23,647 bases of DNA from Candidatus Caldarchaeum sp. GTDB lineage: Archaea; Thermoproteota; Nitrososphaeria_A; Caldarchaeales; Caldarchaeaceae. This document shows, piece after piece, positions 1,037 to 22,824 of the stretch. Within the stretch, counting starts at the first letter, position 1, and each line of letters begins with the position of its first letter. A program made the translations under genes and the position numbers. The notes under the pieces were generated by a model that saw only the letters and a program-made list of their open reading frames with translations, was not told the DNA's origin and searched no databases. The DNA is taken from assembly GCA_038831915.1 (NCBI GenBank), contig JAWBKB010000020.1:1-23647 (forward strand), written 5' to 3'.

Positions 1037-1600
1037 TTGCTTGCGGTCCTACGGCTCGGCCACCGAATTGCTAGGGACAAACGCCTATCCACCCATGTTG
1101 CTCTAGTGGCGAGAGCTTTCGGAGCAGACCAACTCTACTACACCGGAGAATTTGACACAGGGCTCGAACAAAGCGTTGAAAAAGTCGTGAAAAAATGGGG
1201 AGGCAACTTCAGGATCGAATACGTTTCATCTTGGCGTAGTTTCCTGCAGTCGTGGAAAGGCAAAAAAGTTCATCTCACCATGTATGGACTACCGCTGAAA
1301 AATGTCATAGGGGAAATACGGGAACTTTTCAAATCCCATGACCTGCTGGTAATCGTTGGAGGAGAGAAAGTTGAGTCGGAAATGTTTTACGTGGTCGACT
1401 ACAACTTGGCCGTTACCAGCCAGCCTCATAGCGAAGCCGCCGCCTTGGCCGTTTTCTTAGATTATCTGTTTGAAGGAGCTGAGATGGACAGAACTTTTCC
1501 GGACGCGATGTTCTACGTCATTCCTTCGCCACGTGGCAAACGAGTCGTGTATCGCCGTTCTTCAGCGAAAGCTGATTTTGGCGTAGAGGGTTTGTTTTGA
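1037..1600 (+). CDS. trm56: tRNA (cytidine(56)-2'-O)-methyltransferase, SPOUT family
   Basis: VLRLGHR..RDKR.STHVALVARAFGA, VHLTMYG, VIVGGEKV, SQPHSEAAALAVFLD. Abuts the tfe stop codon. Confidence 0.95.
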   Translation: MLAVLRLGHRIARDKRLSTHVALVARAFGADQLYYTGEFDTGLEQSVEKVVKKWGGNFRIEYVSSWRSFLQSWKGKKVHLTMYGLPLKNVIGEIRELFKSHDLLVIVGGEKVESEMFYVVDYNLAVTSQPHSEAAALAVFLDYLFEGAEMDRTFPDAMFYVIPSPRGKRVVYRRSSAKADFGVEGLF

Positions 1601-3647: not shown

Positions 3648-4340
3648 GGGACTGTCAACTTAAGGTCTATGGCCGAGAGCCTTACCTTCAAATCCCTGGG
3701 TGATGCAGAGTTGGGGTAGGCCTCGGCCGTCTTATAGGTTTCTTTGGTGATAGAAATGTCTTTCCTCGTATGCGTTATCCTTCATGGGTTAGGGGGCTTG
3801 CTGTCAGGATGTATGTGGAGGGGCTCAGTCTTAGAGGGGTTGCAGAGGTCTTAGGAGAGCTAGGATTCAGGGTGAGCCATGAGTCTGTTAGGAGGTGGTT
3901 CCTTAGGGCTGGTGAGGCCTTCTCATCTATACCTAGGCGTAGGCGTGGACCGATAGCTGTAGATGAGACAGTAATCCGTAATCTCGTCAGGAGGGCCTAT
4001 CTATGGGCTGCTAGGGAGGTTGGGGGAGGAGAGGTATTCGCCATACAGGTATCGAGGGGTCGTGGAATAGGGGAATGCACAAGGTTCATGGAGAATGTAA
4101 AGAAGGCATGCACTAACAACCCTACAGTCTACACGGATAGGGCTCCATGGTACAGCTGGCCCGTGAAGATTCTGGGCTTTAGGAGGAGGGTAGAGACATT
4201 CGGAAAGAGAAACGCCATAGAGTCTTGGTTCAGCAAGCTCAAGAGAAGAATAAAACAGTTCAACACATACTTCCCAACATACAGACCGAAGGTATCAGAG
4301 AAGTGGATAAAGTCATGGATAGCCTTAAGTTGACAGTCCC
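3648..4340 (+). mobile_element. IS6-family insertion sequence, 693 bp
   Basis: Terminal inverted repeats GGGACTGTCAACTTAAGG (3648-3665) and CCTTAAGTTGACAGTCCC (4323-4340), resembling IS6-type GGnnCTGT ends. Encloses a DDE transposase whose stop lies in the right TIR. No target-site duplication visible. Confidence 0.93.
3770..4333 (+). CDS. IS6-family DDE transposase (true start probably ATG 3703, with a frameshift)
   Basis: GLSLR..AEVL..LG..VSHESVRRW HTH; IAVDET, VYTDRAPWY and NAIESWFSKLKRR form the DDE triad. Confidence 0.9.
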   Translation: MRYPSWVRGLAVRMYVEGLSLRGVAEVLGELGFRVSHESVRRWFLRAGEAFSSIPRRRRGPIAVDETVIRNLVRRAYLWAAREVGGGEVFAIQVSRGRGIGECTRFMENVKKACTNNPTVYTDRAPWYSWPVKILGFRRRVETFGKRNAIESWFSKLKRRIKQFNTYFPTYRPKVSEKWIKSWIALS

Positions 4341-4363: not shown

Positions 4364-5473
4364 ATGCTTCCCGGATACTATTTCCCGAATGAGGCTGCTG
4401 AGCCTCTCCTATGGCATCCCGTCCTATTTGCATACACTCTGCTGATTTCTGGAGCCGACCTGCTTATTCTCGCGTCACTGGCCTATCTTTCCGGTTCTCT
4501 TAAAAGAGCCATTCCTTTGATGACGATGCTGGGCATTGGTTTCTTCGCGGTCGTTCTTCCGGGGCCTTTGGCGGATCTACGCTCAGCCCACAGGGCAACG
4601 CTCATATTCACATCAGCACACATATCGCCCACTGCAGCAAATCCGGGACTCTCGCTGATAGCGTTGCAGACTTATGCATGGCTGTTAGCTCTAATCCTTT
4701 CGATAGTTTTCGCCCTCCTGACGTTTTCATACTACTCTCATCAAGCATCGATAACAGCTACAGGTCCTAAGAAAGCGGTTTACCAGTTTTTCTCGTTAGG
4801 CATAACGACGCCTGAGAAATACAGGAACGCTGAGCTTGTTGCCAAAGCTGTGGCCGTGGTTATGCTGATTCCGCTAACTCTGTGGGGGATTTACCCGGCT
4901 TCGATGCTTTTCACCCAGACATGGAACCCAGTCTGGCGCGGATGGCCGCTGCTTCTAATAATCTACTTCGCCGACACGTTCGTAGTCGCCACGGCTGTTT
5001 TCATCCTCGTCTACTACATTTGGAGGCTCAAAGCCATAGAACGCGAGATTCTCTCACACATCCTGAAGATACATGCGGCTGGCTCTCTTTCGGTTGCTGC
5101 GTTGACGGGCTTGCAGTTGGCTGTCTGGTGGCTTTGGTCCCCGTCGATGGCTGAGATGGTTACTCCCCTCATCCCCCTGATGTACGTCGTGATAGGCCTG
5201 TTGCTCCTGTCATTCTTCCTCTCCCTCCTGTCGATCAGATACCCGCTGGCAAGCATAGCTGTGTCGATAGTGGCTCTGTCGGGAACACTCGCCAACAAAT
5301 GGAACATACTCATCAACGGCCAGCTCATCTCTAAGACAGGGCTTGCGTTTTTCGAAGCAGAGCTCACGGGCCCGTGGCTATTGGAGACGTTGGCGCCTGC
5401 TGCGGCGGGCATAGCTCTGTTCATCCTGCTTTCGATTATTTTCCCGCTGGAGGTGAGGGAGCATGGTCAGTAG
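4364..5473 (+). CDS. ttrC: NrfD/PsrC/TtrC-family membrane anchor subunit
   Basis: Polytopic membrane protein with LLW...FAY.LLISG, PLADL...HRA and KWNILINGQLISK motifs; overlaps the start of the molybdoenzyme gene. Confidence 0.8.
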   Translation: MLPGYYFPNEAAEPLLWHPVLFAYTLLISGADLLILASLAYLSGSLKRAIPLMTMLGIGFFAVVLPGPLADLRSAHRATLIFTSAHISPTAANPGLSLIALQTYAWLLALILSIVFALLTFSYYSHQASITATGPKKAVYQFFSLGITTPEKYRNAELVAKAVAVVMLIPLTLWGIYPASMLFTQTWNPVWRGWPLLLIIYFADTFVVATAVFILVYYIWRLKAIEREILSHILKIHAAGSLSVAALTGLQLAVWWLWSPSMAEMVTPLIPLMYVVIGLLLLSFFLSLLSIRYPLASIAVSIVALSGTLANKWNILINGQLISKTGLAFFEAELTGPWLLETLAPAAAGIALFILLSIIFPLEVREHGQ

Positions 5474-8400
5474 AAGGACGGTGGTCAAGGGGGTTGTGGG
5501 CGCCGCAGCCCTTGGCGTCTTCCTCGCAGGCTACTGGGACACGGTCGATAGAATCGTAAAGCCGTCGAAGATGTTGTACAAGCCCGACAAGCTAACAGGC
5601 ACTGGAGTGAGATATGTTTACACGTCCTGTCTGGGCTGCAACGTAAGATGCGGCATACGGGTCAGGGTCTCGACATACGACGGCGTGGAAGTCATAGACA
5701 GAATTGAAGGCAACCCCTACCACCCATACAACAGATACATCTCAGCAGACCGTCAGCTCAACCGTTACGGCACTTTGGACTACAAAACATCCATCCAGCA
5801 ATCCCTGAAATTCACAGGCACCCTGTGCGCCCGCGGCCAAGACGGAATACACTACGTCTACGACCCCTACAGGATTGTCAAGCCTTTGAAGAGAGCTGGC
5901 CCGAGAGGCAGCGGCAAGTGGAAGGCCATCGGCTGGGAGCAGCTTATCAGAGAGGTTGTCGAAGGCGGCGTCATCGAGGAGACAGGCGAAAAGCTTCCTG
6001 GTCTCAAGGAGTTGTTTGTGTACGGCCGGTTGAAGGAGGCTGGGTTTGAAAACCCAGGCGACATTCTCGCCGGTATCAAGAAAGACGTCGACGACTTGAT
6101 GGCTAAGGCCGCTGACAGAAACGTGAAGGTGGAAGAGCTTGAAAGCCTGCTTAACAGTTTCAAGGAGAAATGGTCTAAGACGCTGGGTGAGAAAGGGCTT
6201 AAGCTCGAAGACGTTCTCGTGGACCCGGACAACCCAGACCTCGGGACGAAAGCCAACATGCTCGTCTTCATCAGGGGTAGAGGACAGGACAACGCCGATG
6301 TTTTCACCAACAGGTTCATAACTGCTCTCGGAAGCGTTAACTGGCTCCGCCACACCTCTTCATGCCAGCTTGGGTTCTACGCAGGAAACTATCTCTGGTC
6401 AGGCTACTACGACATAAACCCCGACGCTTTCAACGCAAAAGTCTTGATAATGGCGGGCGCTGCTATGGGCAGGATGCATCCAGGAGCGACAGGGCAGGGT
6501 CTGCTGGTGGAGAGGGCTGCTGAAGGAAAGCTGAAGGTCTACTACGTCAACCCGCTTTCGCCGAGAACAGCGGCTAGAGGCAACATAGTGTGGGTTCCGA
6601 TAAAGCCCGGCACAGACGCCGCCCTAGCGCTCGCCATGGCGCAGATACTCATCCAGAATGGTTGGATAAACAAGGCGTTCCTTGAAAAGCCGTCGAAGAA
6701 AGCCGCTGAGAAAATCGGCTATCCATACCAGAGCAACGCCACATGGCTTGTTGTGATGGAGGAGGGGCACAGCCTCTACGGCTACGTTCTCACCGATAAG
6801 CTGGCTGGTCTGGGTGAGGAGGGTAAGCCGCTTGTCTACACGAAGGAGGGGCTTGCGGTCAAAAGTCGACAGCGCTGAGCTGGAGTATTCGGGCAGAGTC
6901 AAGCTTGCTACGGGTGAAGAGGTGCTGGTCAAGACAGCTTTCACGACCTTCAGGGAAACGGCTTTCAGCAAAACCGTCGAGCAGTGGGCAGGCATCTGCG
7001 GAGTTCCTGTTGAGACGATAAAGCAGATGGCGAAAGATTTCTGGGAGGCAGCTCCCAAAGCAGCAACATACATCCACAGAGGCGTGGCCCAGCATCCCAA
7101 CGGCGAATACACGGTCTGGGCCCTACGCAGCCTCGACATCCTGATTGGAAACTTCCACCGAGCAGGTGGTTTGCTGGCAAGGCCCTCGACAACGAGCTAC
7201 AACAGCTATCTCTACAACTGCGGAGCAAGCGGCTTCGGCGAGCCAACAAGGTGGGGGCCGCCGATAGACAGGCACAGGGCGGAGTACGAGAAAACACTCC
7301 AATACTACAGGAAGATTAAGAAGGGTGAAAACCCGTACCCAGCGAAGAGGCCATGGTACCCGTTGACGCCTGAGGAAAGCTACACAGAGATGTTCGCAGG
7401 GATAGACCTAGCCTACCCGTATCCTGTGAAGGCTTTGATAATGTACTTCGCCAACCCAGTCATCTCGGTGAACAACGGCCTCAAGTTCGCCGAAGTCCTC
7501 AAAGACACTAGGAAGCTGCCGCTGTTCATCGGCATAACCACAACCATCAACGAAACATATCTGTACGCCGACTACATCGTCCCCGACACAACCTACCTCG
7601 AGACAGGCACCAGCGGCGTCCAATTCCTCTACAGCAGCGGCATGGGAAGACTATTGGCAGAGTCGTGGAGGTCTCCTTCGATAATGCCTTTGACGGAGAA
7701 GATATCTGACGCGCCCGACGGAAGCCCACGCTACGCCTCGATGTGGGAGTTCTTCATAGACGCTGGAAAAGCGGTCAAGTCACCCGGCTACGGCGACAAA
7801 GCAATACCCGGAGTAAAGGGAAAGAAGTATGAGGGCCAGTGGTTCCCGCTCCACAGCTTCTGGGACTACATCATGCGGGTTTACGCCAACGGCGCCGTAA
7901 ACGCCGCAGACAGAGACATAGCTCCTAAAGAGATTCCCGCAGAAGATGTGAGGTTTGTCGAGGAAAACTATCCGATAGCGAGGTTCAAGAACAAGCTGCC
8001 TGAGGACGAGTGGAGGGCCGCCGCATACTGTCTCGTCAGAGGCGGAGTGTACACAACCTATGAAGAATCCTTCAACGAGCTTGAATTCTCGAAAAGAGGC
8101 GTCCCCGGGACAGGCGTTCTCCAGCTCTGGAACGAGACACTCGCAAAAACACGCAACGGCATAACCGGCAAAAAGTTCTGGGGAGGACCCGCATACTTTG
8201 AGCCAGCAACCTACGCTCCCGTCGGACAGTCTTCCAGAACAATCCCGTTTGCAGGAACACCGTTGAGAGAGCTTTATCCCGAAAGCCAGTACCCGTTGAA
8301 CCTCATCTTCGAGTCAGGGCCTTTATACACGAAACACCGAAGCGGCAACTATTACTGGATAAAGACCATTATGCCGGAGAACTTTGTGTTGGTGAACAAG

Positions 8401-8907
8401 GCTGACGCCGACGTTCTTGGCGTGAAGACGGGCGACATCGTGTCGGTAGAGTCTCCCGAAGGCATTTTTGAAGCTCCGGCTGTAGTGACTTCAGCTGTTG
8501 CAAAAGGCGTTGTAGCCGTGCCCTATGGGATGGGTAGGTGGGCTGAAACGCTTGTTGTCAAGCCGGGCTACGTGAGGCTGAGGATGAGAGGCGAGGTCTT
8601 GAACGCTTTACCTGAAAAGGTTGAGATACCGGAGGACGCCGTCAACCCAGTCAAAAAGCTACCAACACTCGTCAAGAAAGTGTTGTTCACCAACAGGCCG
8701 GGCGAATACTTTGAGAAAGGGCTGGCGGTTGACGAGTGGAGGTTCGCCGGCGTGACACCTAACTTGATAGAGTTGAGCGACCAATCTCAAGGCGGCTGGT
8801 CTCTGCTAACTTGGCTGGGAGCTGGATAGTCGTACTACAGCAACCCGGTAAAAGTCTCTAAGACAGGGAAGACGAAGAAGCTGATGCCACATCAGATAGT
8901 CTGGTGA
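5463..8907 (+). pseudogene. ttrA: Tat-exported molybdopterin oxidoreductase catalytic subunit, TtrA clade; frameshift at ~6848-6864 and in-frame TAG at 8827-8829
   Basis: Tat motif SRRTVVKG; FS0 cluster CLGCNVRC...TLCARG; IEGNPYHP; WEQLIREVVEGG; DPDNPDLGTKAN; putative Mo-ligand Cys in RHTSSCQ; ADYIVPDTTYLE; C-terminal dinucleotide-binding domain. ORFs 5463-6878 and 6814-8829 are consecutive halves, and the frame continues after the TAG (SYYSNPVKVSKTG...IVW) to TGA 8905-8907, 4 bp before the next ATG. Confidence 0.88.
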
Positions 8908-15603: not shown

Positions 15604-16161
15604 ATGAAGACCTTCACAGACGAACATATCGAATTCATTTTCTTAGGACGGGGAGGGCAGGGAGTCGTAACAGCCAGCCGCGTGCTGGCCGAAGCCGCCC
15701 TCCTCGAAAACAAATACGTACAGTCATTTCCCGAATTCGGGCCCGAAAGGTCGGGCGCTCCCGTCAAAGCATACGCAAGAATCGCCCCCGCTCCGATTGA
15801 GATTCGGGCCCCCGTGGAAAAAGCCGACATCAGCGTTTTCTTCGAAAGCCGTTTGACTCAGGTCTTCAAACCCGGTGACATCACACAACCAAACGGAGTG
15901 GTTGTGATGAGTTGTAGAGAACCGTCGAAAATTTCAGTCGGCGACGGTTTCCAAGTCTTCACCTTAGACGCCCAAGAAATCATAACTTTTCTGAAAAGAC
16001 CCTTAGCGCTGAACATGGTGATGCTTGGAGCTGTCGCTTCTGCAACAAAAGTGGTTTCACTGGATTCGCTGAAAACAGTGGTGGGTAAGAAATTCAGCCC
16101 CATAGACCTTCAAGCCCTTGAACAAGGATATGTGAAGGTGGTGAAACATGAATCAGCATAG
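15604..16161 (+). CDS. porC: Pyruvate/2-ketoisovalerate:ferredoxin oxidoreductase gamma subunit
   Basis: GRGGQGVVTAS, QSFPEFGPERSGAPV.AY.RI, NMVMLGA. Confidence 0.93.
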   Translation: MKTFTDEHIEFIFLGRGGQGVVTASRVLAEAALLENKYVQSFPEFGPERSGAPVKAYARIAPAPIEIRAPVEKADISVFFESRLTQVFKPGDITQPNGVVVMSCREPSKISVGDGFQVFTLDAQEIITFLKRPLALNMVMLGAVASATKVVSLDSLKTVVGKKFSPIDLQALEQGYVKVVKHESA

Positions 16162-18537: not shown

Positions 18538-19178
18538 GTGTCAATTAAAGAGGAATTTCTCAAACTCCTGAAAGAAGACGAAACATTCCGGTATACTGTA
18601 GCGGGATACATTGGGTTAACGGAAATCCTTTCACGAATCGACGCCAACACAGCAGACATCAAAGTTCTTCAAGAACAGGTAAAAACTCTACAAGACCAAG
18701 TCAGAACACTTCAGGAACAGGTGAAGGCTTTGCAAGAGCAGGTGGCTAAACAGGGTGAAATTCTCGCCGAACACACCGTGAGGCTTGACAAGTTAACGAG
18801 AACTTTGGGAGCCATCGGGACTCGGTGGGGCATTTTGTCAGAATCCGCTTTCCGCGAAGGTTTGAAAGGAGTGGTTGAGAAACATTTTGGAGGAAAGATA
18901 TCCCGGTGGGGGCCTTTGACAAAGCGGGCGTCGTGTATGGCCATCCGGCTCTTGTGGAGGTCGATGTATTGGTGCGGGACAAAGAACATTTACTCGCCGA
19001 AATCAAGTCAAGCATCAGCCGCGGAGACGTGGCAGAGCTTCAACGAGTGGCGGCGATGTATGAAACGGAGATGGGTGTCAAACCCAAGCTCTGCATCATA
19101 ACCCCATACATCGACGACAAGGCGAAAGAGCTTGCGAAATCACTTAACATAGATGTGTATTCGGCGACAGAAATCTAG
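18538..19178 (+). pseudogene. Archaeal coiled-coil + PD-(D/E)XK nuclease-like protein (DUF3782-like), split by a -1 frameshift at G5 18908-18912
   Basis: EEFLKLLKEDETFRYTVAGYIG, heptad coiled coil, AIGTRWGILSESAFREG; then in the -1 frame FDKAGVVYGHPALVEVDVLVRD..HLLAEIKSS.SRGDV...IITPYIDDKAKELAKSLNI. Confidence 0.8.
18661..18744 (+). repeat. Four degenerate 21-bp tandem repeats encoding heptads KVLQEQV/KTLQDQV/RTLQEQV/KALQEQV
   Basis: Units start at 18661, 18682, 18703 and 18724. Confidence 0.85.
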
Positions 19179-19576
19179 CATCGTGAAGGCTGTTTTTCTC
19201 TGACCCACTCGGTTGAATAGGGTTTGCTGGTGATGATGCAGAGGAATTCAGCTTCTTCTTTCCCTGTGTTTCGGTAGCTGTGAACGGTTTTCGCGGGAAT
19301 GAAAATCGCGTCGCCCTGCTTAACTCTGTGAACGACCCCGTTCAACACGACCTCATATTCTCCGCGTAACACATATTGAACATGCTCCATGTCGGGATGA
19401 CTGTGGGATGGAATTTCACCGCCCGGCTTGATGACGAACCTGCGCAAGTAAATGTTTTCCGACCCGTCCCTCACATCAACCAGCCACTGAATGTAGGTGT
19501 CTGTGGCGTTTTCAACCGGTTTCAACTCGACGGAGCCGCTGCTCTTGACAGACGGCTCGACTTTCACAGCATCCAT
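19175..19576 (-). CDS. Cupin-domain protein (cupin_2)
   Basis: LRRFVIKPGGEIPSHSHPDMEHVQYVLRGE...GDAIFIPAKTVHSYRNTG...FLCI; TATA-like TTTTATT ~25-31 bp upstream on the minus strand. Confidence 0.9.
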   Translation of the reverse strand: MDAVKVEPSVKSSGSVELKPVENATDTYIQWLVDVRDGSENIYLRRFVIKPGGEIPSHSHPDMEHVQYVLRGEYEVVLNGVVHRVKQGDAIFIPAKTVHSYRNTGKEEAEFLCIITSKPYSTEWVREKQPSRC

Positions 19577-19630
19577 CCGCTTTTTGCATCGTTAAACAGG
19601 AATAAAACCCTTAGCAGTGCCAGATGAATG

Positions 19631-20466
19631 TATCACAACGCGGAAGTAATACCGGGAAATTCTCAGAATACGTATACTGGATGTGACGCGGCGTGATGCA
19701 AAAATAACGCGGTTTACCAAACTGTATTCCAGAAAAAGGTTGAACGACGCATCCGACGGAAAGCCAAAATACGCCGAAATAAGGCGGAAAATCGCGGAAG
19801 ACAAATTTCTCCAAGAACTCGTCAAAAAGTCAAACCTGACGCAGAAACAGGTGGAAACACTTATCTTCGACGTGATATCACAGCGTGACGGCGTGAGGTT
19901 GACATCACAGGAACGTGCCGCGCTACGCGGCGTCACAAAAGGAAGCTTCATACGAACCCGGAAACAGGCGTTGCGCAACATCCAAAAATCATTCATCACA
20001 CTGATCCTGCTCAGCTACCTTGGACTGATTAAACTACCTGAATACAATTGGTTCTATCGGCTGAGCGACGCATTCGAGGAAAAAGACTGGGAAGCCGTCA
20101 GGGAATTTCTAGTCTCTCTGGAGGTTTGAGGCAGGGTTGGAGGTTTTAACAGCTGTCTTCGCCCTTCTTTTCGTCACCCAAACCGCTGTCTTCATTTATC
20201 TATATAGAAGGGCTGTGACGAACCGTGATATCACACAGAAGGACAAAGAAAATCACACACCATCAGGGCCTCAGCAGACTCATGAAACGACAAACCGCTC
20301 AAAAAGCTACGACAAACCAACGCTGCACAGCTCAGCTATCGCTGCTTTAAGGCTAATTAGGGAGAAGGGAAGCGTGACATCAAGGGACGTGAGCCGTAGC
20401 CTGAACCTCAGCAGAGAGCACACAGCCCGCGTCATGAAAAACCTCTACGAAATGGGGCTGGTGACA
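19631..20466. repeat. Dispersed array of the GTGAYRTCAC palindrome and GTGAYR/YRTCAC half-sites
   Basis: Identical CGTGATATCACA at 19871-19882 and 20224-20235; one-mismatch palindromes at 19899-19908 and 20374-20383; TGTGACG-NNN-CGTGAT at 19682-19697 and 20214-20229; 15 hexamer half-sites counted by hand in ~835 bp. Confidence 0.75.
19740..20129 (+). CDS. Tfx-like helix-turn-helix DNA-binding protein
   Basis: SNLTQKQVETL...TSQERAALRGVTKGSFIRTRKQALRNIQKSFITL parallels the Tfx/sigma-region-4 pattern LT..Q...L...TQ.EIA..LG.S...S.....A..NI.K...TL. Start TTG 19740 inferred (the ORF is open from GTG 19683). Confidence 0.6.
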   Translation: MNDASDGKPKYAEIRRKIAEDKFLQELVKKSNLTQKQVETLIFDVISQRDGVRLTSQERAALRGVTKGSFIRTRKQALRNIQKSFITLILLSYLGLIKLPEYNWFYRLSDAFEEKDWEAVREFLVSLEV

Positions 20467-20607
20467 AGGTCTGGCAAACCTTTTAAATACAACTTAACCG
20501 AAAAAGGGCTCGCCATAATCGCCTCAAATAGCACCAAAAACCATGGTTCACAAACTTTTATCGATATCCCAAGAATAGCCCCAAATCCTGCTTCAAATGA
20601 AGAATAG
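20137..20607 (+). CDS. Membrane-anchored winged-helix DNA-binding protein
   Basis: N-terminal hydrophobic helix VLTAVFALLFVTQTAVFIYLY followed by RR, a polar linker, then wHTH ALRLIREKGSVTSRDVSRSLNLSREHTARVMKNLYEMGLVTR..KPFKYNLTEKG; 7 bp after the upstream stop. Confidence 0.8.
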   Translation: MEVLTAVFALLFVTQTAVFIYLYRRAVTNRDITQKDKENHTPSGPQQTHETTNRSKSYDKPTLHSSAIAALRLIREKGSVTSRDVSRSLNLSREHTARVMKNLYEMGLVTRSGKPFKYNLTEKGLAIIASNSTKNHGSQTFIDIPRIAPNPASNEE

Positions 20608-20980
20608 CGCCCTCAAGCTTCTCTGGTGAGGGGTTAACGCTGTAGCCCCTGAGCGTGTAGACAATTAACCTCTCGCTGGGGTCTAAGAATTTCATTAGGT
20701 CAAATTCTAAACGGTGTCTGTTCAAAGGAAGGTCCTGCAGTTCCTCAGCAGTGATAGACGATGAGTCTGACCTTCCGATGACATATAGATACATTTTCGC
20801 AATAAAGAACGTCAGCAACATCAGGTCCTCTCGTCTGGGCAGATTAAACAGCAGATATATATTGCCCTCGTTTGAGACACGGAACAATCTTTCCAAAAAT
20901 TTCTCATGATTTTTGAAGATTTTACTAAGCAGTTGTTTGTCCACTACAAGCTTTCGATATGTGGAGAATTTACGTCGCAA
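20558..20980 (-). CDS. Hypothetical protein, divergent paralog of the upstream gene
   Basis: 140-aa ORF 2 bp after the upstream stop; aligns by eye with 20983-21402. Confidence 0.65.
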   Translation of the reverse strand: MRRKFSTYRKLVVDKQLLSKIFKNHEKFLERLFRVSNEGNIYLLFNLPRREDLMLLTFFIAKMYLYVIGRSDSSSITAEELQDLPLNRHRLEFDLMKFLDPSERLIVYTLRGYSVNPSPEKLEGAILHLKQDLGLFLGYR

Positions 20981-20982
20981 CT

Positions 20983-21402
20983 TCAGTCAACTTGTTTTTT
21001 CTCTTTCAGCGTTTCAAGCCTTCTTGACAACCTGTCCCTGAGGCTTTTGATGCCTACTATGGTGATTTCATACCTTCCTCTTTCTCTACGGACTATTTCG
21101 GTCCGAGCTATACTTTCAGTGAGACGGGCCGCCACAACCTTCTGAGGCAGGTTTGTTTGTTTCACTATTTCGCCTAGCTCTGCTTCGGCTGTTGACGCGA
21201 GGCCTGCTATGTTTGCCAGCTTCTTACCTGTTAAGTAGAGATGCAAGAGGTCGGTGGATGTGGCGTTTGCTGTGTCTAGCAGCACGAAAACCCGCCCATC
21301 CTCTGTAATCCTTAGAAATTCCTTGAAAAACTTCACGTCATCAGGAGTTATCTCTTGCTTAACGACAAGCTCCTTCTTTATCAGGTCTTTGAGCTCGTCC
21401 AT
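20983..21402 (-). CDS. Hypothetical protein with probable C-terminal winged helix
   Basis: Start ATG 21402 (MDELKDLIKK) with TTTATAA 26-32 bp upstream; ELGEIVKQTNLPQKVVAARLTE...IVRRERGRYEIT is wHTH-like. Confidence 0.7.
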   Translation of the reverse strand: MDELKDLIKKELVVKQEITPDDVKFFKEFLRITEDGRVFVLLDTANATSTDLLHLYLTGKKLANIAGLASTAEAELGEIVKQTNLPQKVVAARLTESIARTEIVRRERGRYEITIVGIKSLRDRLSRRLETLKEKKQVD

Positions 21403-21427
21403 CTTAACCTTATCCGTCGCTCGGTGG

Positions 21428-21434
21428 TTATAAA
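21428..21434 (-). promoter_or_regulatory. TATA box TTTATAA for the 21402 operon
   Basis: Canonical archaeal TATA at -26 to -32 from the ATG, consistent with a leaderless transcript. Confidence 0.65.
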
Positions 21435-21473
21435 TGTTCAAAAGATGGTTTTTGGCGGTATTTGAGTTTGGCA

Positions 21474-21500
21474 ATAACTCGGTTATACAGTGGTTTATAT
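21474..21500 (+). promoter_or_regulatory. Palindrome ATAAC-N3-GTTAT (21474-21486) plus TATA box TTTATAT (21494-21500) of cytX
   Basis: TATA at -26 to -32 from ATG 21526; the palindrome lies just upstream of the BRE position. Confidence 0.55.
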
Positions 21501-21525
21501 TGTAGACGCGGGCTTGGCTAAGCAA

Positions 21526-22824
21526 ATGAGGATGAGGCTTCCGCCAGAGTGGGGTCCTGAAGCCGTTCCGCAGGTGGCGCGTCAACTAAGGTTCTTTGAC
21601 TACTTCGTTCTCTGGTCAAGCCTAGGCGTAGGTCTTCTGGTGATGGTTGCGGGTTCTTTCCTTTCCTCGCTCGGCTTGGTCGAGGTGTTGGCTGTGGCTG
21701 TCGCAGGCTCGGTCGTCGGCAGCTTGATGCTGGCTGTAGCCGGCGCTGTGGGCAGCAGGTACGGCGTCCCAACCATGGTCAGCCTAAGGCCTGTTCTGGG
21801 GCTGAGGGGAAGCTACGTACCGACGGCGCTCAACATAGTCCAGCTAGTTGGCTGGACTGGGTTTGAGATAATGATAATGGCTCAGGCAGCGTCTGTTTTG
21901 ACTGGCTGGCTTTTCGGCGGCCTCAGCTTCCCCATCTGGGTGATTGTGTTCAGCCTCTGGTGTATGTTTCTTGCCTTGGGAGGGCCTCTCGTCGTCGTCA
22001 GGAAATGGCTTGAAAGGGTTGCGATCTGGCTTGTCTACATATCATCCATCTGGATAACATATTTGGTGGTAAGCTCACCCGCCTTCAGCGGATGGTTTAC
22101 AGCCCGTAGCCCCGAGGCAATCCCTATACTGTTGGCCCTAGACCTCGTTGTGGCCATGCCGATATCATGGTGGCCGCTTGTCTCCGACTACAACAGGTTT
22201 TCCCTCAAGCCGTCGGGAAGCTTCCTCGGAACGCTCACAGGATACACCGTATCCAACGCATGGTTCTACTTCCTCGGAGCAGCCCTCGTAGCCGTCTTAG
22301 GCATCAACGACATAATCTCGGCGATTGGTGCTCTTTTCCTCGGAAACGCGGCGCTGCTTCTAATCCTCGTCGACGAAACAGACAACGGCTTCGCTGACAT
22401 CTACTCCTCGGCGGTTTCATTCCAGAACATTTTCACCAAGACGCCGCAGTGGGTTTTCGCAGCCTTCACAACAGCCGCCGGCGCTGTTCTCGCCCTAACA
22501 GTTCCGCTCATGCAGTATGAGTGGTTCCTTCTGTTGATAGGCTCGCTGTTTGTTCCGCTTCTCGGAGTCATGGTGTCAGAGTTCTTCATAAACAGGAGAG
22601 CTAGCCAGCCCAATGTTGAAGAGTTTTACAAACCAAGCGGCTTCAAGCCCGGAAACTTCATAGCATGGTTTTCAGGAATCGCTGTTTACATCACCATAGT
22701 CCAGCTGGCTCCAACCATCGGAGCATCAATTCCATCTTTCGCCGTTGCCGTAGCAGTGTCAGTCATCGCCCACCAAATAGCCAAACGTGTCGCAAAACCA
22801 ACCGCAGAGAAAATAGCCGAATGA
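21526..22824 (+). CDS. cytX: NCS1/purine-cytosine permease family transporter, CytX-like (putative hydroxymethylpyrimidine uptake)
   Basis: About 12 TM helices; LWSSLGVGLLV, GVPTMVSLRPVLG.RGS..P..LNIVQLVGWT.FEI, AMPISWWPLVSDYNRF, DETDNGFADIYS, FLLLIGSLFVPL.GV. Confidence 0.85.
   Translation: MRMRLPPEWGPEAVPQVARQLRFFDYFVLWSSLGVGLLVMVAGSFLSSLGLVEVLAVAVAGSVVGSLMLAVAGAVGSRYGVPTMVSLRPVLGLRGSYVPTALNIVQLVGWTGFEIMIMAQAASVLTGWLFGGLSFPIWVIVFSLWCMFLALGGPLVVVRKWLERVAIWLVYISSIWITYLVVSSPAFSGWFTARSPEAIPILLALDLVVAMPISWWPLVSDYNRFSLKPSGSFLGTLTGYTVSNAWFYFLGAALVAVLGINDIISAIGALFLGNAALLLILVDETDNGFADIYSSAVSFQNIFTKTPQWVFAAFTTAAGAVLALTVPLMQYEWFLLLIGSLFVPLLGVMVSEFFINRRASQPNVEEFYKPSGFKPGNFIAWFSGIAVYITIVQLAPTIGASIPSFAVAVAVSVIAHQIAKRVAKPTAEKIAE

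Follow-up and report, generated by a model that had tools for sequence, protein, structure and literature searches.

A dense GTGAY half-site array in a two-gene locus of Candidatus Caldarchaeum as a candidate membrane tether and operator

Positions 19631-20466 of a Candidatus Caldarchaeum contig raise the question of why two adjacent genes, here called P1 and P2 together with their products, should be strewn with short GTGAY-type sequences, and whether these are a by-product of the encoded peptides or DNA elements with which a protein would engage. The window analysed was the whole of contig C20 (23,647 bases) of the 34-contig, 1.59-Mb genome labelled G000; families, genera, loci, genomes and the contigs of G000 are denoted by f, g, L, G and C respectively, and P3 is a third small winged-helix protein encountered in related genomes. 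The explanation favoured, at a probability of roughly 0.55 and on the strength of sequence comparison, is that the hexamers form an array predicted to be bound by P2, which would both tether the locus to the membrane and exert feedback on its own operon.

Density and selection of the half-sites in Caldarchaeum

A search of the window for GTGAYR/YRTCAC hexamers returned 48, against a shuffle expectation of 39.4 +/- 5.7, and 15 of them fell within 19631-20466, at every one of the positions given by an earlier sequence-only reading of this DNA. The crowding was equally apparent on the scale of the genome, in which 2,959 hexamers gave a mean of 1.55 per 836 bp (standard deviation 1.29; 62,575 sliding windows): the P1-P2 locus was the genome maximum, with 14 per 836 bp at a 25-bp step, and the runner-up, on contig C13, held 8. 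The ten-base GTGAYRTCAC occurred three times in the window against 0.07 expected, a number reached by none of 100 shuffles, and five times in the genome. The specific form GTGATATCAC and its 12-base extension CGTGATATCACA each had two genomic occurrences, at 19872 and 20225, and the prior observation that the 12-mer lies once in each gene was thereby confirmed and extended to its being found nowhere else in G000. The composite TGTGACG-N3-CGTGAT, in which direct half-sites stand 10 bp apart, was likewise recovered twice in the locus, at 19682 and 20214, as had been reported, and half-sites were present in both orientations. A further perfect site previously noted at 15875 in the por gamma gene was excluded from the system: a same-genus genome has not retained it, and its occurrence appears fortuitous.

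One rival explanation is that the array is a by-product of coding, in that particular peptides and codon usage (Val-Thr, Arg-Asp and Val-Ile-Ser codon combinations) would produce the hexamers with no function for the DNA. Two controls were conducted with the peptides held fixed, 5000 shuffles being made in each case either by resampling codons according to genome usage or by permuting synonymous codons within each gene. The two open reading frames (ORFs) hold 12 hexamers, compared with 3.7 +/- 1.7 under genome codon usage (1/5000 shuffles reached 12) and 6.0 +/- 1.8 under within-gene permutation (6/5000), so that the density, which the sequence-only reading had considered out of the ordinary, was not ordinary by either measure. 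The peptides do lift the background, to 3.7 from a genome mean of about 1.6, and the second gene taken alone was marginal, with 6 hexamers versus 2.4 by genome usage (71/5000) and 6 versus 4.0 by permutation (641/5000), yet the total count is unexplained by them.

The distribution of the sites also tells against a coding origin. They occupy three reading frames as well as non-coding DNA, in agreement with the sequence-only reading. The GTG at 19683 is probably not the start codon of P1: homologues begin some 19 codons later, for which reason the TTG at 19740 is the most likely start. The 48 bases upstream of this start were conserved in the same-genus alignment as DNA and not as a reading frame, one frame through the block carrying a stop in G000 and in several same-genus loci; given this conservation and the later start, the sites at 19631, 19683 and 19693 are non-coding.

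Comparison of nine same-genus loci showed that half-sites hold their positions in four clusters, termed A to D, with cluster B lying over codons for FDV(I/M)SQRDGV. The tandem pair of cluster A was nearly invariant in the genus, being kept in eight of the nine loci, the ninth retaining one hexamer, while cluster D was present as a 10-bp-spaced pair in seven of the nine and reduced to one hexamer in G000 and L004. Cluster C persisted where the peptide itself changed: its residues read VTNRDITQ, VTRHSITQ, VMQRDVMV or VMRRDVSRD in different same-genus genomes, each of which nonetheless retained two to four hexamers, their arrangement altered and sometimes with a different palindrome. Where the amino acid was invariant and the third base fell within a motif, a single codon was used in three of five columns and the other two varied between C and T only, as the motif allows; outside the motifs, a single codon was found in one of 47 such columns (Fisher p = 0.0018, a value that is overstated because the genomes compared are related). 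Taken together, these patterns indicate that the hexamers are under selection as DNA, and with synonymous positions frozen inside motifs, three sites in non-coding DNA and the corresponding sites of other families intergenic in the loci set out below, an origin in coding alone is highly improbable.

Table 1. Features of the P1-P2 locus in the window, and of related elements elsewhere
Feature	Position	Strand	Remarks
Cupin gene	19175-19576	-	Divergent from P1; Pfam match
Non-coding region, divergent cupin gene to P1	19577..19739	.	Promoter-like block plus three half-sites; from ORFs, cupin Pfam match, homologue starts and alignment
Single half-site, TATCAC on plus strand	19631..19636	-	Not kept here in same-genus loci
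Cluster A, tandem pair GTGACG-N4-GTGATG	19683..19698	+	Directly 5' of promoter-like block
A/T-rich TATA-like stretch, then palindrome-like GGTTTACCAAACTGTATTCC (19711-19730)	19699..19730	+	Conserved; putative promoter
P1 gene	19740..20129	+	129 residues from TTG at 19740; all-helical, possible helix-turn-helix; without known family
Cluster B in P1, GTGATATCAC plus four hexamers (19885, 19903, 19931, overlapping 19876)	19872..19936	.	Over codons FDVISQRDGVRLTSQ...GVT
Single half-site in P1	19994..19999	-	Not kept in same-genus loci
P2 gene	20137..20607	+	156 residues: N-terminal hydrophobic helix, disordered linker, winged helix, C-terminal helix
Single half-site, P2 membrane-helix codons	20172..20177	-	Not kept in same-genus loci
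Cluster C, GTGACG-N4-GTGATATCAC	20215..20234	.	Just past P2 membrane helix
Cluster D remnant	20374..20379	+	One hexamer; first helix of P2 winged helix (SVTSRD)
Single half-site, P2 wing region	20461..20466	+	Not kept in same-genus loci
GTATACAAAA-TGTATCC-type element, other families	L080, L088, L077, L087, around 1440-1470		Shortly 5' of P1 coding region
Four origin recognition box (ORB)-like inverted repeats	L090 3386-3560		Spacer upstream of orc1/cdc6; about 0.8 kb from P2 end
P3	L090 2840-3295; L095 4033-4440; L099 1744-2166; G000 C6:30339-30728
Genus g5 loci of ParA/MinD neighbourhood	L099 (G018), L021, L025, L027, L035

Data from other sequencing runs bear on the same stretch. A contig from a second study (run X5) covers it completely, departing from it at six positions and by one extra base; none of these seven changes falls within the 15 hexamers, their places being 19616, 19626 and five points in 21534-21597. 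One metatranscriptome run (X16) gave 0 reads on the stretch, which says nothing either way about its transcription. In X7, a DNA run of low depth, contigs break off close to each of the two GTGATATCAC palindromes (window 19866-19897 and 20212-20422), and another run spans both; these ends may reflect strain variation or an assembly effect. The second densest hexamer stretch of G000, at about 46500-47100 of C13, consists of scattered sites without module-type pairs, palindromes or composite structure. A reading of the array as structured RNA was discarded, since an Rfam scan of 19400-20800 on both strands returned nothing at an expectation (E) value of 1 or below and the half-sites run in both orientations.

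The two proteins and their array across the phylum

The membrane-anchored winged-helix product claimed by the sequence-only reading was supported by family models and predicted structure. P2 passed the Pfam cut-offs for HTH_27 (36.4 bits; cut-off 22.2) and MarR (28.0 bits; cut-off 24.6), and its model comprised a helix over residues 2-38, a disordered segment over 39-63 and a winged helix with a predicted local distance difference test (pLDDT) score of about 95. The N-terminal helix is hydrophobic for about 22 residues, followed by Arg-Arg, and is preceded by only one to three residues, a profile which suggests that P2 is membrane-inserted with its winged helix in the cytoplasm. Among fold matches, MarR proteins ranked highest together with AspA, which binds the centromere of plasmid pNOB8: the best by Foldseek was a MarR protein (E 9.9e-5), with alignment to MarR structures covering only the winged-helix part, roughly 75-85 residues, and superposition of the winged helix on AspA gave template-modelling (TM) scores of 0.74-0.82 over the AspA length (E about 1e-4).

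P1 matched no family in Pfam or NCBIfam scans. Its predicted model was all-helical (pLDDT 74), and its conserved core resembles a helix-turn-helix followed by a long hydrophobic helix. A Foldseek search of the model against PDB returned nothing below E 2.3, sigma region 4 appearing at E 9.6, and one Atlas cluster neighbouring P1 carried Sigma70_r4 on 14% of its members (score 0.88), which is to be taken as a lead only. When the P1-family profile was compared with PDB sequences the only matches were de novo designed helical bundles, on the C-terminal part, and these were set aside as a composition effect. Complex prediction with P1 and residues 24-135 of P2 scored 0.00, a result that gives no verdict either way.

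Protein searches named Candidatus Caldarchaeum as the relatives, with related loci from Caldarchaeum, Pelearchaeum and Terraquivivens. Of 41 related genomes, 39 contained P1, and in those loci that were read P2 followed it immediately downstream. More widely, a P1-family profile matched 290 clusters in a representative library, and a single match per genome was obtained in 105 of 201 genomes sampled from the phylum, P2 being downstream in most of the loci fetched. Four loci of other families were set out base by base, one each of f14, f31, f18 and f6, and in all of them GTGAY half-sites, variously arranged, take up a spacer of 200-450 bp that precedes P2. The stop codon of P1 lies inside GTGATATCAC in two of these four and inside a different hexamer in a third, and some loci carry a second GTGAY cluster about 500 bp upstream of P1. 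An element like GGTTTACCAAACTGTATTCC, of the GTATACAAAA-TGTATCC type, was found 5' of P1 both in the same genus and in all four of these loci; this palindrome-like element may be the promoter, or else an additional operator to which another protein binds.

Family f5, represented by complete genomes of about 1.6 Mb and taken as Nitrosopumilaceae-like, presents a variant arrangement in which the sites run from the 3' part of P1 into P2. The P2 peptide TSRDI was found in six of eight f5 loci and was written as ACR-TCA-CGT-GAY in all six, at G+C contents from 0.32 to 0.58 and with CGT making up only 7-18% of local Arg codons.

Significance was assigned to GTGAY clusters that beat 200 shuffles at P <= 0.01. 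By this test they were found in f1 (4/9 loci), f4 (2/10), f5 (7/7), f6 (1/1), f14 (7/7), f18 (4/4), f22 (1/1) and f31 (2/2), and were absent from f2 (0/9), f3 (0/5) and f21 (0/1), with densities of eight to fourteen half-sites per 300 bp; the Terraquivivens-type loci of f4 carry instead TGAYRTCA palindromes at fixed places upstream of and inside the genes. The suggestion that orthologous loci would keep the motif accordingly holds for most families, synonymous and spacer sites included, and fails for f2, f3 and f21, in which none was detected. Loci without P2 nearby were those of f2 (nine loci), f3 genus g6 (four) and f21 (one), all of them without the array, and a P2 profile applied to five such genomes found nothing, or weak winged-helix matches in larger proteins. 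The array appears to follow P2 in evolution, a suggestive pattern, and since P2-less lineages are without the array it is P2, and not P1, that is pointed to as the binder.

It follows as a working proposal that the hexamers would be half-sites, with the core GTGAY, of a selected protein-binding array belonging to an old two-gene module, the most likely binder being P2, possibly with P1. Many bound copies, at cluster A by the promoter and at clusters B-D within the operon, could then assemble a membrane-attached nucleoprotein complex that would feed back on transcription of the operon and, in most lineages, where the module adjoins orc1/cdc6, would mark the origin region. The P1-P2 spacer of Caldarchaeum, now 7 bases, would have shrunk from a longer ancestral one, leaving the sites in coding DNA. 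If P2 is a membrane protein that binds these sites, a single act of binding would physically attach the locus to the membrane and would probably also place the operon under its own control.

The location of many of these sites invites a plainer alternative, namely that P1 and/or P2 are ordinary transcription factors that use multiple sites to control their own operon, whether negatively or positively, with membrane attachment serving to control the factor by sequestration or release, and with proximity to the origin an inherited gene order without function. Cluster A lies directly 5' of the TATA-like block, the usual place of action of an archaeal regulator; the arrays in the four loci of other families set out above occupy the spacer upstream of P2 and, in some loci, arrays also occupy DNA upstream of P1, which are promoter regions; and MarR-type winged helices, whose cut-offs as well as those of HTH_27 P2 passes, usually bind palindromes in their own promoters. 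Additional palindromes scattered in f5 genomes could also represent a regulon. Autoregulation, however, usually involves one to three sites, a figure far exceeded by the eight to fourteen per 300 bp recorded here, and the sites persist in coding DNA, where they exact a price in the codons used. P2 is also devoid of an extracytoplasmic sensor domain, having only one to three residues ahead of its helix. Nor were other loci with composite sites found in G000 and f1, and a factor regulating only itself has no output: matches to GTGAYG-N4-GTGAYG fell within the locus in 3/3, 2/2, 2/2, 2/2 and 2/2 cases in five f1 genomes and in 2/4 in two more, and composite sites outside the G000 locus were few and scattered, at most 13 per pattern genome-wide. 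A plain operator is regarded as a serious if tentative rival, less probable than the combined tether and feedback.

Proximity to the origin and the weighing of the alternatives

The sequence-only reading had also looked to the position of the locus relative to cdc6. In the present work the origin was placed by means of orc1/cdc6, together with repeats in one locus. In all 17 complete or near-complete genomes considered (16 of f5 and one of f31), P1 and the orc1/cdc6 with the highest score shared a strand, and P1 lay 2.8-5.9 kb from the Cdc6_C domain; in two cases the interval wraps round the start of the record. Of 47 further genomes, from 14 families, 36 had orc1/cdc6 1.9-10 kb from P1 within one contig; for the remaining 11, either the genes fell on separate contigs or no top orc1/cdc6 was recovered, and in none did the two share a contig while lying far apart. 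Outside Caldarchaeales, 53 of 64 genomes therefore had P1 at 1.9-10 kb from the best orc1/cdc6, the remaining 11 not being judgeable. Proximity to cdc6 is in that sense upheld outside Caldarchaeales and does not extend to that order, and adjacency in most lineages fits a chromosome-anchoring role.

A stronger version of the proposal is that the array, P2 and P1 together constitute an undescribed anchor of the origin region to the membrane, common to Caldarchaeales, ammonia-oxidiser-type archaea and many relatives, in which an integral-membrane winged-helix protein would load onto a compact centromere-like array beside oriC and so position, segregate or license the origin. This is a possibility of about the same standing as the plain operator and, like it, one on which the odds are unfavourable. 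A structural role is favoured by the many sites, by the lack of other targets seen in G000 and by the linkage to the origin, and an operator by the fact that cluster A, like the spacer arrays, lies at a promoter.

Several results weigh against a P2-bound tether, or against its extension to the origin, and are most conveniently considered together. Half-site spacings vary (7, 10 and 13 bp), so there is no single binding geometry, and the four single sites at 19631, 19994, 20172 and 20461 are unconserved and may be due to chance; to these may be added the marginal excess in the second gene, described above. Most f4 loci were weak by the hexamer measure (2/10), one P2-bearing locus, L030 of f3 genus g9, had no significant cluster, and the parallel loss of array and P2 rests on about three losses in related lineages. 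The perfect 10-bp palindrome occurs one to ten times per f5 genome (35 times in one larger, 4.3-Mb genome), the reversed 10-mer used as a control giving 0-6 per genome (16 in the 4.3-Mb genome), and among the f5 matches listed all but one were away from the module, from which it follows that other targets may exist and that the array is not always exclusive to the locus. Finally, the distance from P1 to orc1/cdc6 in Caldarchaeales was 11.5-152 kb (18 same-contig cases of 39), so that the module is not origin-adjacent in that order, and in G000 itself the orc1/cdc6 genes are on contigs C18, C6 and C33 and P1-P2 on C20.

The neighbourhood of the module raises one more alternative, in which the array would be bound mainly by P1, P3 or Orc1/Cdc6 and would act in the control of replication, for instance holding an initiation factor in check near the origin by titration or sequestration. 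P3, marked by a conserved STASTYLSRL motif and assigned to no Pfam family, occurs alongside P1 in many lineages: it is found between P2 and the region upstream of orc1/cdc6 in the f5 and f31 loci read, and beside P1 in several families of Caldarchaeales. The order in f5 locus L090 is P1, P2, P3, a spacer with four ORB-like inverted repeats, orc1/cdc6 and the DNA polymerase D small subunit, the module in this one locus being 1-2 kb from the repeats. The helix-turn-helix-like conserved core of P1 would also suit it for DNA binding, and five of the six loci examined from f2 genus g5 have a ParA/MinD-type Walker A motif encoded upstream of P1; in G018 (L099 2129-3780), a ribbon-helix-helix-like gene of 115 residues and a ParA/MinD ATPase (AAA_31, 170 bits) are directly upstream of P1 on the same strand. 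Against this, lineages with P1 (and P3) yet without P2 have no array, the g5 genomes with the ParA/MinD neighbour among them being without both P2 and the array; the half-site is unlike the ORB-like repeats beside cdc6; and P3 of G000 is on another contig, C6, 18 kb from a second orc1/cdc6 paralogue. Binding chiefly by any of these proteins is on balance unlikely. The array was also considered as a replication origin in its own right and rejected, as it lies in coding DNA without ORB repeats and the ORB-like repeats of L090 (3399-3556) stand apart from the array.

A number of other features of the window were recorded. Two minus-strand ORFs of 140 and 200 residues (20558-20980 and 20983-21585) are convergent with P2, and the former has a homologue at the same place in same-genus locus L003. 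They were tried as candidates for P3 and excluded from the module, having no BLASTP similarity to the P3 of other lineages and no Pfam or NCBIfam family. At 18538-19178, DUF3782 (18538-19101) and the PD-(D/E)XK nuclease domain PDDEXK_10 (18906-19178) occupy two overlapping frames, an arrangement suggestive of a single gene interrupted by a frameshift, or of a misassembly. Further upstream, an IS240-type DDE transposase gene (3770-4333) adjoins a molybdopterin oxidoreductase split over two overlapping ORFs (5463-6878 and 6814-8829). In same-genus genomes the corresponding place, some 12-15 kb upstream of P1, is occupied by orc1/cdc6, so this part of the contig may be rearranged.

Significance and relation to known systems

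No description of the P1-P2 pair or of the motif was found in full-text literature searches or in the parts consulted of the reviews PMC4010727 and PMC7617429. Those sections of the 2024 review (PMC7617429) that were consulted describe archaeal chromosome segregation as poorly understood, name only SegAB of Sulfolobus, and name no mechanism for Thaumarchaeota.

For the way in which these archaea place and segregate their chromosome, the present locus offers a directly testable candidate with a built-in cis element and a predicted membrane anchor. Were the anchor reading true, it would amount to an archaeal realisation of the old idea of a replicon attached to the membrane; even if P1 and P2 are merely autoregulated factors, they make up a widespread pair of families without annotation. 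The locus would further illustrate how the loss of a spacer can carry binding sites into coding DNA, where they are kept at the expense of codon choice.

Comparison with established partition systems reveals both likenesses and differences. As in parS/ParB, parC/ParR, the pNOB8 centromere with AspA, and SegB of Sulfolobus, short repeats are clustered in or beside the gene of the putative binder and would double as its operator; the module, like partition sites, lies near the presumed origin in most lineages, Caldarchaeales excepted, and the winged helix of P2 superposes on AspA. Unlike those systems, no ParB, ParR or SegB domain was detected in P1 or P2 by Pfam and NCBIfam scans, and there is no motor ATPase in the P1-P2 operon of the window, the only ParA-type neighbour being that of g5, in which P2 and the array are wanting. 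The candidate binder, moreover, would be an integral membrane protein, and MarR proteins match P2 as well as AspA does.

A second point of reference is provided by RacA, which recognises ram sites, and Noc, bacterial site-specific DNA-binding proteins that join chromosomal sites to the membrane or cell pole, the RacA sites being near the origin. These proteins make contact with the membrane by way of a partner or of an amphipathic helix, and the sites they recognise are scattered through extensive regions; P2, by contrast, has a predicted transmembrane helix and one compact array in its own operon, and no homology was found. MarR autoregulators resemble P2 in that its winged helix passes the family cut-offs and matches MarR folds, and in the presence of palindromic sites at its own promoter. 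P2 differs from them in lacking the soluble dimer interface that MarR proteins build from N- and C-terminal helices and, in particular, the N-terminal dimerisation helix, for which a hydrophobic anchor and a disordered or coiled-coil linker are substituted, in having an array of ten or more half-sites and not one or two palindromes, and in having no evident ligand pocket. ToxR, CadC and the ArnR/ArnR1 proteins of Sulfolobus are membrane-bound one-component regulators with an extracytoplasmic or cytoplasmic sensor domain that regulate other genes. They share with P2 the union of a DNA-binding domain and a membrane anchor in one polypeptide, whereas P2 has almost nothing outside the membrane, and no target was seen in G000 beyond its own operon. 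By analogy, the P1-P2 system, a member of none of these classes, would work like the centromere-operator cassettes and the bacterial membrane tethers, and it makes a good candidate for a module, so far unstudied, that organises the chromosome or regulates itself.

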